Source of the DNA: Candidatus Aenigmatarchaeota archaeon
GTDB taxonomy: Archaea; Aenigmatarchaeota; Aenigmatarchaeia; Aenigmatarchaeales; JACQIB01
Assembly: GCA_046760225.1 (NCBI GenBank)
Contig: JBHIDR010000013.1
Span: 1-20,863, forward strand
DNA: 20,863 nucleotides
Direction: 5' to 3'
This document shows, piece by piece, positions 18,001 through 20,863 of this stretch. Position 1 is the stretch's first letter. Every line of letters starts with the position of its first letter. The position numbers are program-made.

Positions 18001-20863
18001 ATCGGTATTATGCTCGTGTTGTTTATCAGGTTCGCCTCATGGGTCAGCAGCTCTGAAACAACCTTGTAATGTATTAGCACATAGTCCGAGCCGTTGTACA
18101 CCCTTGCAGTATAGTCATCAGCTGCACCTGCAGAAAAAGAGAAAACATAGCTCCCACCAGAAACGCTCGTGTTTGTTGTGCTGAGCACAACATCAGAGGT
18201 GGAGTTTGTTACATTGAGCGTTAGCAGAACACTCGCAGCACTTGCATTTCCTGTTATTCTTACTGTGTCACCTGTCTCGTATATTATCTTGTCCGCACTG
18301 CCGCTTATTGTATAGGCACCTGCTGCTGAAGTCAGCACAAGCGAAAAAAATACAGTTATGATTATAAATTTTCCTTTATTCAATCCCACACCCCATTTTA
18401 GTTTACTTAAGCCTCCTTATAAAGGTTTTGCTGTATTTAATTGTAATATTTATTGTTACAACTCCAATATATATTTAACGTTCTGCCTCAAAACGGGCCT
18501 ATTTATAAAGATTGATATTCAAGATTTCATTGGCAGGGAGCTAGACTGGGGGGCTCGTCCTACCCTGTAAGCGCAAATGGGCGTTATGGTGCGGTCGAAG
18601 CTTGAGGGCGGTGCAGGAAGTCTGTAAGGTCCTGCTAGCCAACTGAGAAGCGCCGTCCTGCAGAGTTGGTGTTATAGCGAACTGGGTCAGACTGGGAACA
18701 GAGGAGGATAAGTGATGGAAATGAACGAAGCATATTTGGTAGGATACACTATTGGAGACGGCTGTCTGTATAGCTGTAGCCATGTGTTTAGTTTGGACCC
18801 TAGAAAGAGTCTAATGGACTACGAAATTACGTGGGGCGATAAAGATTTGGAACAGTTGGGGCTAATTGAGAGAATAGTAAAATCTTTGTTTCCTCATGTA
18901 TACCTAAAAACAAAGATTAGAAAAAAATCAAAGGGCAAAATCCTCAGGTGTCGTAGAAAAAAAGTTTTTTTACACCTTAAAGAGCTGCTCTCTAAAGATA
19001 TGAAAAGTGAGACAAAGGAAAACATAGCAGCCTTTATAAGTGGGTTTTGTGATGCCGAAGGTGATATCGGCAAAACCAATAATGGAACATACAAAGGCAA
19101 GATATACTACAAGCCCCGTATCCAAGTAACTCAAAAAGATAAGGCTATCTTAGAACAAATAAAGGAGTTACTTGAAAAAAAATTCAATATAAAATCTAGA
19201 ATTCATAAAAAATGGGATCAAGACGCATATATCTTGCAGATAAGTGGATGTAAACAAGTATCTATTTTCAAAAAGGAAATAAATTTTAGAAATCCTACCA
19301 AATGTGCAAAGTTAGAAAGTATACTTTCCTCCGTTCAAAGCAGCCCTAAGTTGTAGCATCAGCGTTTGCAGGGTCGCGGCGTGGAGAAGGCTGACAGGGT
19401 AAGCTTTATGGGTTTTCTGTATCAACCAAAGGCATGCTTCCTGCCATTTTTATTTAAAGGGATGCAATGATTTTTATGGCCAGGAAGAGAAGGAAAACAA
19501 GCAATCTCCAGCTTGTCCTAGTTGTACTGGTTGTGTTCCTTGCAGGCGTTCTCACAGCCCTGCAGTTCATGGAGCCAAAAGAAATTATTCAGCCAATACA
19601 GGTAATAAAGAACCTCACTGTCCCGCCCCAGATTAGTGAAGGTTCTCGGGTGGAGATGCTCGTTCCAGCAGTGGACACGGATGGCAATGGCGTCACAACC
19701 AGGCTAATGGTAGAGGCAAAGCCAGGCACAGGAAAGGTGCTTACCAATATCGACATACTGCTCTTCTGGGTGGACACCCAGCAATCGATACAGGTTGCAA
19801 GGGACGTTGCAAAGAACATAACAGGCATAGACACTGATGCGCTTGACATCACATATGCAATAGAGGCAGACAATGTGAGCCTTGTTGGCGGTCCTTCAGC
19901 AGGCGCTGCCCTCACAGTTGCCACTATTGCTGCGCTCCAGGCAAAGCAGCCCGACCCAAATGCAGCAATAACAGGCACAATAAACCCGGACGGAACAATA
20001 GGAAAGGTCGGTTCTGTGTATGAAAAGGCAAGGGCAGTGAAAAGGGACAATGTCATGACATTGCTCGTGCCCACCGGTGAAGGCGTTGAAATCACAGTAA
20101 GGCCAATTGAGAAATGCATAGAAGAGCCCGAGTTTACTTTCTGCGAGACCTACTACAAGCAGAAGAAGGTCAATATAGGGGAAGCACTTGGCATGGAAGT
20201 CATAGAGGTTGGCAATGTCTCAGAAGCACTGCCCTATTTCTTTGAATAAGCTTAAAAAACTTTGATTCCCAATTATTAATTGGCCCCAATGACTACTGAT
20301 AGGCGGAAGGAGCGAAAGCTGTGACCGCAAATGAGGTGAATCGAGGGGTCATTAATTCTAGAAAAATAAATTGAGAAAGGCCTATTTCTTTGCCTTTCCC
20401 ATTATCCTGAAGACCTTTGTCCCGCAATTCGGGCAGACTCCCTTCATTGCCCTCATCTTGTTCTTCATTATCACTTCCTCTGCGTCCTTTATCTCTCTTC
20501 TACCATAAAAACACCTAGAATGTATATAATATAGATATTTAAAAACCTTCGCATTTCTATTACTCTTATGCTGTCAGACAAGCAGAAAAAACAGCTGCAG
20601 AAGGCAGATTACAGGCTAGTATGCGGGCATGGAGCTGTAAAGCTCTGCCTCTGGTGCAAGAAATCAGTGAAATCAGGTGAAAAAGACATCTGCTACAAGC
20701 AGATGTGGTATGGCATCAAGTCCCATCGCTGTCTTCAATTAACACCGCTCATAACAGCCTGCAATCTTCGCTGTGAGTACTGCTGGCGCAATCATGCATA
20801 CTTCTCTCCAAAAGTACCAGAACATGTTGCCAAACCAAAAGAGCTTGTTGACCAGGCAATAAA

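Follow-up and report, generated by a model that had tools for sequence, protein, structure and literature searches.

We describe a bulge-helix-bulge (BHB) intron of the archaeal kind, equipped with a LAGLIDADG gene, that has very probably settled in the signal recognition particle (SRP) RNA gene of a member of the Nanoarchaeota (DPANN), directly 3' of the helix-8 tetraloop hairpin. The SRP RNA, one of the few universal RNAs, is encoded in the assembly under study (G000) by a gene that is split by a 637-nt insert, as a preliminary description of this DNA had observed. Here we computed the anatomy of the gene, the BHB motif and its covariation, the colinearity of the product, the presence of the splicing enzymes and the sporadic distribution of the intron.

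Results and discussion

The split SRP RNA gene

The interrupted gene occupies about positions 18532-19445 of the window, i.e. of the whole stretch of 20,863 nt that was analysed (all features are on the forward strand). It is the sole copy detected in the assembly: RF01857 and a covariance model of the 5' domain (R1) each yield one match in G000 and no second SRP RNA. An intact SRP RNA is present in a same-genus genome (G001, numbered G033 in the preliminary description), where we found the earlier 129.5 bits against RF01857 again. Aligned to the window with blastn, this RNA gives two colinear blocks: its nt 4-164 correspond to 18527-18690 (132/164) and its nt 175-281 to 19338-19445 (90/108), so that the gene is indeed split after the tetraloop stem of helix 8. 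The unspliced locus itself matches Archaea_SRP (RF01857) with the 5' part alone (18534-18645) at 35.1 bits, which is below the gathering score of 96.5 and agrees with the roughly 35 bits given before.

Exon 1 (18532-18701) holds the 5' strands of helices 1-5 and helix 8 through the CUG-GGAA-CAG hairpin; next to the partial RF01857 match it is covered by nhmmer profile positions 2-184 and by model R1 (91.1 bits). Exon 2 (19339-19445) starts with the AGCAG strand of the helix-8 loop, followed by the 3' strands of helices 8, 5 and 1, and corresponds to nhmmer profile positions 168-272 in addition to the second blastn block. The intron (18702-19338) fills the gap between the two colinear homology blocks. 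Its length and borders, with exon 1 ending at 18701 and exon 2 starting at 19339, are thus as first proposed and are confirmed by the homology blocks together with the BHB motif; cuts shifted by +1 or +2 (intron 18703-19339 or 18704-19340) would yield an identical product. With respect to the gene extent of 18526-19445 given earlier, the 3' end stands and the 5' end is probably near 18532, where a terminal helix is found (GGCAGGGAGC paired with GCUUCCUGCC). By eye, a TATA-like box (TTTATAAA, 18502-18509) appears to be centred about 27 nt upstream of this inferred 5' end, and a T-rich run (TTTTTATTT, 19447-19455) is a likely archaeal terminator.

The bulge-helix-bulge motif at the borders

The two borders form a BHB motif. 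In its central helix (H) the exon strand GAAC (18696-18699), consisting of the last three tetraloop bases and a C, pairs 4/4 with the intron strand GUUC (19333-19336) in the MFE fold (p = 0.99). The 5' bulge AGA (18700-18702), with the inferred cut after 18701, is unpaired over its 3 nt in the same fold and is followed by the inner helix h', of which the 5' strand GGAGGA (18703-18708) pairs 6/6 with the 3' strand UCCUCC (19327-19332). The four central pairs and the 6-bp inner helix reported before are hereby confirmed. On the other side lies the 3' bulge AAA (19337-19339), with the inferred cut after 19338. In the MFE fold this bulge comprises 2 nt (19337-38), while 19339-40 pair alternatively with 18692-93 (CU/AG). 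As modelled, the 3' side of the motif is therefore relaxed rather than canonical, and the overall form is HBh'. The motif had been described as lacking an outer helix; this holds in so far as there is no solid one, but a weak 3-bp helix h is possible between CUG (18692-94) and CAG (19341-43), offset by a G-G mismatch.

Within the window, 1529 of 25,015,900 position pairs show this BHB geometry by chance (6.1e-5); with the distance fixed, 2 of 40,286 positions do so. Hence the motif alone is common; its match to borders defined by homology is not.

The endonuclease gene

Nearly the entire intron is taken up by an ORF of a LAGLIDADG homing endonuclease (18715-19356, 213 aa), which accounts for 624 of the 637 nt and is preceded by 13 nt. 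Pfam matches are to LAGLIDADG_3 (2.4e-15, 57 bits against a cut-off of 22.5) and LAGLIDADG_1 (8.3e-7, 30.3 bits against a cut-off of 23.1). The two families named in the preliminary description are thereby recovered; its start at 18721 (211 aa), which is that of the gene caller, is replaced by ATG 18715 as the most likely start, from which the homologues align. GGAGGA at 18703-18708 doubles as a Shine-Dalgarno-like GGAGG, 7 nt before this ATG. At the other end, the final 18 nt of the ORF, with the stop codon (19354-56), fall within exon 2, so the excised intron would lack a stop. This fits translation from the precursor, as we infer, though it would be unusual.

The ORF contains the motifs YLVGYTIGDG and FISGFCDAEG, in which D13 and E113 are invariant in 8/8 homologues. 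Its best solved relative is I-DmoI (E 2.8e-4, residues 5-178), which is encoded by an archaeal 23S rRNA intron, and both motifs align onto the two of I-DmoI. Judged from its sequence, the product is a single-chain, two-motif LAGLIDADG homing endonuclease of the I-DmoI kind, with presumed cutting and homing activity. Seven homologues were found at 54-62% identity. The family is small and separate: among 1.84 billion, 5 cluster representatives reach E <= 1e-30.

The same intron at seven further loci

Seven further distinct loci carry a homologous endonuclease ORF; in each of them it occupies the same place in the SRP RNA, again with this motif. These loci (L041-L045, L048 and L040, where L040 matches L046 with 1 mismatch in 1786 nt) stem from contigs of metagenomes, from genome G173 and from a named Nanoarchaeota MAG. 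Their introns measure 631-641 nt, and the 5' bulge is AGA in seven of the eight loci (AAA in L048). When the BHB motifs of all eight loci are aligned, 97.1% of the cells pair, against 33.7-48.1% if the partners are slid. The central helix is paired for 100%. The inner helix extends over 6-13 bp with 95.8% of the cells paired and 5 of 6 pairs changed on both sides, and the weak outer helix likewise reaches 95.8% with 2 of 3 pairs invariant. The covariation score was reached by none of 500 shuffles.

The BHB also forms in the unconstrained MFE folds of the whole precursors: the central helix is found 4/4 in 8/8 loci (pair probability 0.59-1.0), and the inner helix is complete (6/6) in six loci, with 5/6 pairs in L041 and 3/6 in L048. 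The divergent loci L044, L045 and L040 fit the consensus structure of the order poorly (57-59 of 91 pairs), which may be due to distance and approximate 3' ends, or to decay. Overall, the reading as a mobile BHB intron is strengthened by the comparison, given eight distinct loci, one insertion site and a covarying motif.

Distribution and signs of mobility

The endonuclease family is sporadic: a single genome among the 42 of the order has it, and 2 among the 371 of the class. To place the intron-bearing RNAs in a tree of the SRP RNAs, at least 3 gains or losses are required (5 on the best tree). The exons of L041 are 96% identical to the intron-less SRP RNA of G027, and 9 of the 11 substitutions are located within -41 to +18 of the junction. 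Such a cluster resembles co-conversion, though we noticed it after the fact, and a faster evolution of the stems around helix 8 may be all that lies behind it. The CUG/CAG apical stem is present in 7 of the 8 intron-bearing loci versus 1 of 30 intron-less RNAs; of the intron-less sites, that of G024 has a CUG/CAG stem and that of G001 a UCC/GGA stem. The earlier view of the insert as a mobile element is supported indirectly by this sporadic distribution and by the difference cluster at the insertion site.

No other interrupted SRP RNA gene was detected, even at E <= 5, in the 10 genomes of the order without RF01857 match. Model R1 retrieves the 5' domain in 32 of 42 genomes, the sole addition being G028, in which the gene is cut by a contig end. 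No other type of SRP RNA intron was thus found in the order, with 9 of the 42 genomes uninformative.

The predicted mature RNA and its splicing

Joining the exons at the bulges gives a predicted RNA of 277 nt, which aligns to each of 30 uninterrupted relatives without gaps at the junction. Of the 91 consensus pairs, 89 can form in it (97.8%), where the consensus was derived from intron-less RNAs alone and those RNAs themselves reach a median of 93.4% (range 83.5-100). Together with the 76% identity to the G001 RNA (129.5 bits), which serves as a proxy, this suggests that the joined exons would fit the archaeal SRP RNA. At the predicted joint, CUGGGAACAG of exon 1 meets AGCAGCCC of exon 2. Helix 8 then reads GGGUCAGA-CUG-GGAA-CAG-AGCAGCCC and aligns to the model consensus CAGGCCCGGAAGGGAGCAgCc. 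The GNRA-type tetraloop on its short 3-bp stem and both strands of the conserved internal loop alongside (AGCA on the 3' side) are present after joining, as had been proposed.

Helix 6, the SRP19 site, is absent: the RNA of the same-genus genome lacks 40 positions of the model and the relatives are all about 270 nt long. SRP19 was not found in any of the 21 searched genomes of the order (21/21), and the loss of helix 6 belongs to the order rather than to the intron. The SRP RNAs of G024 and G016 have a 33-nt insert that was considered as another intron; its fold is a simple hairpin, the loop of which is GNAR-like, and no BHB was seen in it, though no scan for a BHB was made. We read this insert as a helix-6-like branch.

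The tRNA-type machinery that was expected to remove the intron is encoded. The genome has two tRNA_int_endo (EndA) genes (85 and 66.1 bits), for which solved relatives are found among splicing endonucleases. Both lie on contig C2, as the ORFs 1297-1788 and 2254-2862 of L050. From this paralogy, a two-subunit enzyme of broad specificity appears plausible. The ligase RtcB (496.8 bits) has an intact frame of 481 aa once two mini BHB introns are removed. Introns are present in 13 of the 21 predicted tRNAs. A tRNA-Tyr, with a long intron that carries another endonuclease gene, is seen by ARAGORN if introns are allowed and not by default. A 5S rRNA match appeared in one search and was not reproduced with gathering filters.

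It might be argued that the BHB is cut and the exons stay unligated, leaving a two-piece SRP RNA that is held by the long pairing of helices 5 and 8, comparable to fragmented rRNAs. In the predicted fold of the mature RNA there is indeed extensive pairing between the exons, and a nicked RNA could hold together in this way. Nonetheless, the nick would fall between the tetraloop hairpin and the AGCA strand of the conserved helix-8 loop, and a ligase with an intact frame is at hand. Moreover, as stated by Plagens et al. 2015 (PMC4731332), the termini of the permuted Thermoproteus SRP RNA at the tip of helix 8 are ligated; the same text mentions binding assays that included a non-circularised 'Open' S-domain. 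We consider a two-piece RNA unlikely, and ligated exons the better reading.

Less likely still, indeed improbable, is a dead gene, destroyed by insertion of the endonuclease gene, with the BHB-like pairing being incidental. The Rfam score below threshold would agree with this, as would the reduced genomes of the DPANN and the fact that SRP54 is not found: like the preliminary description, we did not detect the SRP54 M domain in this 83% complete assembly. Yet SRP54 is kept by 20 of 20 relatives, so that, given the incompleteness, its absence is best explained as an assembly gap, and FtsY is present in G000 as a contig-end fragment. The exons are as well structured as intact relatives (the 89 of 91 pairs), the arrangement persists in eight distinct lineages, in which compensatory changes preserve the BHB, and no other SRP RNA gene was found in the assembly. 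All this argues against a dead gene.

That the insert is a self-splicing intron of group I (or II) with a LAGLIDADG ORF deserves hardly any credence. LAGLIDADG genes are common in group I introns and archaeal cases exist (39, all in rRNA genes; Nawrocki 2018, PMC6125680), but the three matches obtained in 18400-19600 with E allowed up to 10 include no intron family of either group, no group I catalytic core (P3-P9) was found, and there is no room for a ribozyme core since just 13 nt precede the ORF and the ORF passes the 3' end of the intron; the borders instead fit the covarying BHB. An assembly chimera or strain mixture that misplaced a mobile element is conceivable for a metagenome bin of 83 contigs and can be dismissed almost entirely, because contigs assembled separately from four sequencing runs of one study cross both junctions (differing at 2-5 bases, with neither an intron-less joint nor loose ends) and unrelated contigs, including one of 147,785 nt, show the same architecture.

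Proposed pathway

In the reading we favour, that of a spliced and mobile BHB intron, the gene would be transcribed from its own promoter into a precursor of about 914 nt. Here the GAA of the GGAA tetraloop and the next C would pair with GUUC near the 3' end of the intron while the intron ends pair together, and both splice sites would be exposed in 3-nt bulges. The tRNA splicing endonuclease would cut both bulges and RtcB would join the exons, by which the CUG-GGAA-CAG hairpin is placed again beside the AGCA strand in a 277-nt SRP RNA without helix 6. The endonuclease would be translated from the precursor, given the stop codon in exon 2, and would cut the DNA of SRP RNA genes that lack the intron, within the conserved sequence of helix 8, after which repair might copy in the intron plus a short stretch of flanking exon. 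RNA cleavage, ligation, translation of the endonuclease and homing are all inferred steps.

Taken together, we think it somewhat probable that a small LAGLIDADG family is specialised for the tip of SRP RNA helix 8, where SRP54 binds, and that its BHB intron spreads horizontally among Nanoarchaeota with the CUG/CAG hairpin being co-converted, which would make protein targeting hostage to the tRNA splicing machinery. The same machinery would also splice the endonuclease-bearing tRNA-Tyr intron and the two mini-introns of RtcB. As part of this reading, the intron would represent the 'simple BHB intron in SRP RNA' from which, as postulated by Plagens et al., the permuted SRP RNA genes descend, and it lies at the same tip of helix 8.

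Comparison with known systems

Full-text literature searches returned no published SRP RNA intron, in agreement with the earlier claim that SRP RNA is a new host for an endonuclease-bearing intron; the only interruptions of archaeal SRP RNA described there are the permuted Thermoproteus genes. None is reported in PMC10266531, PMC4383904 or PMC7758197, and for Sulfolobus and Halobacterium PMC3326292 reports circular 7S RNA segments, not an intron. By Plagens et al. 2015 (eLife, PMC4731332), SRP RNA genes with BHB introns were hypothesised and not described; the present gene would supply that intermediate. SRP RNA would thus become the third class of stable RNA open to endonuclease-bearing BHB introns, after tRNA and rRNA, and a homing endonuclease family is defined that appears to have a new and very conserved RNA-gene target. 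The helix-8 tip seems to tolerate, and perhaps to attract, BHB-dependent processing in two distant phyla. The split gene also accounts for SRP RNA being missed by Rfam-based annotation in such genomes. A further prediction is that these reduced archaea cannot target proteins co-translationally without EndA and RtcB.

Several features are shared with the LAGLIDADG introns of archaeal rRNA: an insert of about 600 nt that is almost all ORF, BHB borders, a sporadic occurrence, a single chain of about 200 aa with two motifs, and a site in a conserved, functional part of a stable RNA. It differs from them in that the host is SRP RNA, the central helix is drawn from the helix-8 tetraloop, the ORF ends in the downstream exon and the protein family is small and separate.

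The relaxed motif with one well-formed side (H, bulge, h') resembles that of non-canonical tRNA introns and split tRNA genes in Nanoarchaeum and Crenarchaeota, which are processed by a heteromeric EndA, and G000 encodes two EndA paralogues. What sets G000 apart from these systems is SRP RNA as the substrate and the presence of a homing endonuclease gene in the intron. The Cbf5 pre-mRNA of Crenarchaeota has a BHB intron as well, which is short and without ORF. As in that case, the tRNA splicing machinery would serve transcripts other than tRNA and rRNA (G000 also has the two mini-introns in RtcB), whereas the SRP RNA intron is long, mobile and located in a non-coding RNA.

Another parallel is the SRP RNA of Thermoproteus tenax and T. 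uzoniensis, which is permuted and circularised. According to PMC4731332, maturation there proceeds via a BHB and the tRNA splicing endonuclease, with the site at the helix-8 tip and the loop restored by ligation (presumed to be by RtcB). In contrast to Thermoproteus, the G000 gene is colinear and not permuted (its exons are in normal 5'-to-3' order) and the product is expected to be linear; the insert is a 637-nt mobile intron with an endonuclease gene, and the host belongs to the Nanoarchaeota (DPANN) instead of the Thermoproteales.

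Interruption of the SRP RNA gene

At its gathering thresholds Rfam gives no match anywhere in the window. With permissive thresholds the Archaea_SRP model (RF01857, gathering cut-off 96.5 bits) matches at 18534-18645 alone, at 35.1 bits and in an alignment that omits the model's central part, in agreement with the preliminary description (about 35 bits for the unspliced locus); this locus is also the single match of the permissive search in the whole assembly (851,505 nt). Uninterrupted matches of approximately 270 nt each are present in 30/40 relatives, 29 of them above the cut-off and one (G016) slightly under it (94.7 bits). 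The uninterrupted same-genus RNA cited earlier was found again in G001 at 129.5 bits. Aligned to the window with blastn, it yields two colinear blocks on the forward strand: nucleotides 4-164 fall on 18527-18690 (132/164) and 175-281 on 19338-19445 (90/108), and the 10 nucleotides of G001 left between the two form the tip of helix 8. Read from the window sequence (forward strand), exon 1 ends with GGGUCAGA-CUG-GGAA-CAG at 18701 and exon 2 starts with AGCAGCCCUAAG at 19339, leaving an insert of 637 nt; the spliced product is the same if the cuts move by 1 or 2 bases.

After joining, the core of 273 nt (18534-18701 plus 19339-19443) aligns without a gap at the junction to all 30 uninterrupted relatives; together with the two blastn blocks this bears out the 637-nt interruption in helix 8. 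When compared to a consensus structure of 91 pairs (computed with the 30 intron-less RNAs only, window excluded), the joined exons fit 89 pairs (97.8%), against 83.5-100% (median 93.4%) for the intron-less RNAs. The terminal helix (GGCAGGGAGC / GCUUCCUGCC) would place the mature ends at about 18532 and 19445, which leaves the 3' end of the previously given span (18526-19445) in place and corrects its 5' end. By eye, a TTTATAAA box (18502-18509) and a T-run directly 3' of 19445 are seen on the same strand.

Both junctions are bridged by contigs of four separately assembled DNA runs from one study, with 2-5 base differences, and no loose ends or intron-less joint were found in the contigs of those runs. 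Among the sequencing runs searched for the locus, none of RNA contains it. The surroundings hold a reverse-strand ORF of 2099 aa (12090-18389), rich in N-x-S/T and with an N-terminal hydrophobic stretch, whose product looks like a giant surface protein. On the forward strand, 19467-20249 encodes a protein of 260 aa that matches the Lon_C proteolytic domain (4.9e-9), and 20568-20861 covers the first part of a weak radical-SAM-like ORF.

Splicing motif at the exon borders

Archaeal splicing motifs are cut in the 3-nt bulge of each strand, after the second base of the bulge. We applied this geometry, with a 3-nt bulge following 4 nt of central helix on each strand; the motif in general is defined in Plagens et al. 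2015 (PMC4731332). On the forward strand the central helix is formed by GAAC (18696-18699) and GUUC (19333-19336), the bulges are AGA (18700-18702) and AAA (19337-19339), and the inner helix pairs GGAGGA (18703-18708) with UCCUCC (19327-19332). The cuts predicted from this bulge-helix-bulge (BHB) motif fall exactly on the homology-defined borders, so the reported borders 18701/19339, with 4/4 central pairs and a 6-bp inner helix, hold. As a control for chance, the same motif occurs at 1529 of 25,015,900 window position pairs (6.1e-5) and, at fixed spacing, at 2 of 40,286 positions. The motif alone is not rare, and the weight therefore lies in its coincidence with the borders and in the comparative data.

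All 10 BHB pairs appear in the unconstrained fold of the complete 910-nt precursor (probabilities 0.92-0.99), with a 5' bulge of exactly AGA; at the 3' side of the minimum free energy (MFE) structure 2 nt are unpaired, and 19339-19340 pair with 18692-18693. As stated before, a canonical outer helix is absent: the best candidate pairs CUG (18692-18694) with CAG (19341-19343), set off by a G-G mismatch. The motif belongs to the relaxed type, HBh'. Its relaxed 3' side makes up part of the remaining doubt about splicing; overall, we consider splicing of the intron to a functional SRP RNA very probable.

The endonuclease gene and related loci

The insert is filled by an ORF whose product matches Pfam LAGLIDADG_3 (2.4e-15) and LAGLIDADG_1 (8.3e-7), with I-DmoI, a single-chain two-motif enzyme, as its closest solved relative (E 2.8e-4, residues 5-178). 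The presence of a LAGLIDADG gene was recognized correctly, its start most likely was not: homologues align from the ATG at 18715 instead of 18721, giving 213 aa (the length of the near-identical database cluster P0001) rather than 211. Only 13 nt of intron sequence lie 5' of the ORF. The 5' strand of the inner helix contains a Shine-Dalgarno-like GGAGG (18703-18707), 7 nt ahead of the ATG, which BHB formation would mask. At the other end the ORF extends 18 nt beyond the border, and the helix-8 strand of exon 2 encodes its final residues (S-S-P-K-L) and stop codon. This overlap (19339-19356 in the window) recurs in the homologous loci L040-L043 and L048; a UAA at the 3' bulge terminates the ORF in L044 and L045.

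Databases hold only 7 homologues of the endonuclease (54-62% identity), and of 1.84 billion cluster representatives searched with a profile, 5 matched at E <= 1e-30 and 12 at E <= 1e-10. Surrounding DNA was recovered from a named Nanoarchaeota MAG contig (L040), six metagenome contigs (L041-L046) and genome G173 of the same class and a different family (L048). L046 and L040 show 1 difference in 1786 nt, which leaves 8 distinct loci including the window. In all eight family members the two LAGLIDADG motifs and the acidic D13 and E113 (alignment numbering) are invariant. According to an nhmmer SRP RNA profile, exon 1 ends at approximately profile position 170, just 5' of the ORF, and exon 2 begins at approximately position 169, at the ORF end, in 8/8 loci; introns measure 631-641 nt.

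A central helix of GAAC with GUUC or GUUU and the 3-nt bulges are common to all eight loci, and this helix is present in the MFE structure of 8/8 precursors. The inner helix varies in sequence with its pairing kept (for example GGUAGA/UCUACC, GCUUGGAA/UUCCAAGC and GUUUGGAAAUAAA/UUUAUUUCCAAAC), and 5/6 of its pairs show changes on both sides. In the eight-locus alignment 97.1% of 104 cells are paired, against 33.7-48.1% with partners slid by 1-3 columns. The observed covariation score was reached by 0/500 shuffles, a figure that is not a probability, since the eight loci share ancestry and one of them supplied the structure. The slid-column controls and compensatory changes are nevertheless clear.

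Distribution and probable mobility

The endonuclease family is found in 1/42 genomes of the order (the present one) and 2/371 of the class, and in an SRP RNA tree of 38 sequences the intron-bearing members are scattered: the starred branches cannot be explained with fewer than 3 gains or losses, and the best tree requires 5. The family is small and dedicated, and its members come from several Nanoarchaeota lineages. The joined exons of L041 are 96% identical to the intron-less RNA of G027, and 9 of the 11 substitutions lie within -41 to +18 of the junction, against 2 in the other ~210 nt (a clustering spotted post hoc). The apical stem is CUG/CAG in 7/8 intron-bearing loci (UUG/CAA in L048) and in 1/30 intron-less RNAs (G024). 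Homing with exon co-conversion would leave such a pattern of clustered substitutions and a common stem. Alternatively, the intron may have a structural need for the CUG/CAG stem, given that CUG is able to pair with the exon 2 CAG in the precursor.

Splicing machinery and further introns

Two tRNA_int_endo genes lie ~470 nt apart in the genome (85 and 66.1 bits; ORFs of 163 and 202 aa). For both proteins the closest solved relatives are the splicing endonucleases 1a79 and 3iey, of M. jannaschii and N. equitans. The two EndA paralogues suggest a heteromeric enzyme. The ligase RtcB is also present (G000:C35, L052:1330-2837), with an apparently broken coding sequence that contains two mini BHB introns, both with a perfect motif in which 3-nt bulges flank a central helix of 4 bp: one of 30 nt (L052:1544-1573, 9-bp inner helix) and one of 32 nt (L052:1646-1677, 7-bp inner helix). 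Their removal yields a stop-free 481-aa frame, colinear with the RtcB of G007 without a gap at the joints, and restores the motifs GHEGYGFPIGG and GGIGYDINCG. The ligase mRNA would consequently need the splicing system to which it belongs; a full-text literature search found no earlier description of mini BHB introns in an RtcB gene. Five of 12 relatives likewise have an RtcB with interruptions around Pfam model positions 25-50 (large in-frame, intein-like inserts with frames of 977 and 1010 aa in G003 and G004; small interruptions or stops in G005, G006 and G008); in the other 7 it is contiguous.

With introns allowed, ARAGORN predicts introns in 13/21 tRNAs, several non-canonically placed and some of 106-123 nt. 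One of the 13, missed by ARAGORN at its default settings, is a tRNA-Tyr(GUA) with a clean cloverleaf (G000:C3:24967-25736, L035:1134-1903), whose 693-nt intron at 37/38 holds a 222-aa LAGLIDADG-like ORF (L035:1183-1851; 33% identity to the SRP intron protein over ~115 residues). Contig C8 (L033, L034) carries three LAGLIDADG-like matches. One of these (C8:20662-21231) lies inside the span of a 23S rRNA match (LSU_rRNA_archaea, 840.6 bits, model positions 16-1422), which suggests an endonuclease gene in an rRNA intron. The evidence from EndA/RtcB, tRNAs, the RtcB gene and rRNA indicates that BHB splicing is heavily used in this organism, beyond tRNA. A 5S rRNA match (L035:2563-2721, G000:C3:26396-26554; 48.9 bits, absent with gathering filters) spans 159 nt versus 120 model positions, a possible insert of ~40 nt.

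SRP proteins and RNA traits of the order

As described before, the SRP54 M domain has no match in this genome (83% complete); it is present in 20/20 relatives searched (20/21 genomes in total), and a contig-end fragment proved to be FtsY. Pfam SRP19 was found in 0/21 genomes of the order, with 3/4 archaeal control genomes positive. In step with this absence, the Rfam alignment shows the 40 model positions of helix 6 to be missing from the G001 RNA, and the order's SRP RNAs measure ~270 nt (L002-L031; e.g. L016:1501-1769). This points to a bacteria-like, helix-6-less and SRP19-less archaeal SRP.

In two relatives, G024 (L030:136-441) and G016 (L031:1501-1806), the 5' strand of helix 5 contains 33 additional nt that form a hairpin capped by a GNAR-like loop and may be what is left of helix 6; in G011 (L013:1501-1786) an inserted hairpin of 15 nt separates helices 3 and 4. 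On inspection (not a BHB scan) these inserts show no BHB motif. In G028 (C7:45-134, reverse strand) only the 5' domain is present, the contig end cutting the gene 5' of helix 8.

Comparison with known introns

A group I or group II intron was rejected: Rfam gives no model match in the insert region, even at E up to 10. According to the accessible text of Nawrocki et al. 2018 (PMC6125680), archaeal introns are of the BHB type apart from a few group II and 39 group I introns, the latter all within rRNA genes, and SRP is unmentioned there. Circular 7S RNA pieces, and no introns, are described in the available part of Danan et al. (PMC3326292). Full-text searches (main texts without supplementary files, mostly without subscription journals) found no SRP RNA intron, in keeping with the earlier proposal of a new host for an endonuclease-bearing intron; the nearest precedent, as far as its accessible part goes, is Plagens et al. 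2015 (PMC4731332). Summarizing, BHB introns with a LAGLIDADG homing endonuclease are a known type of mechanism; what is new is SRP RNA as the host, and the intron sits at the SRP54-binding tip of helix 8.
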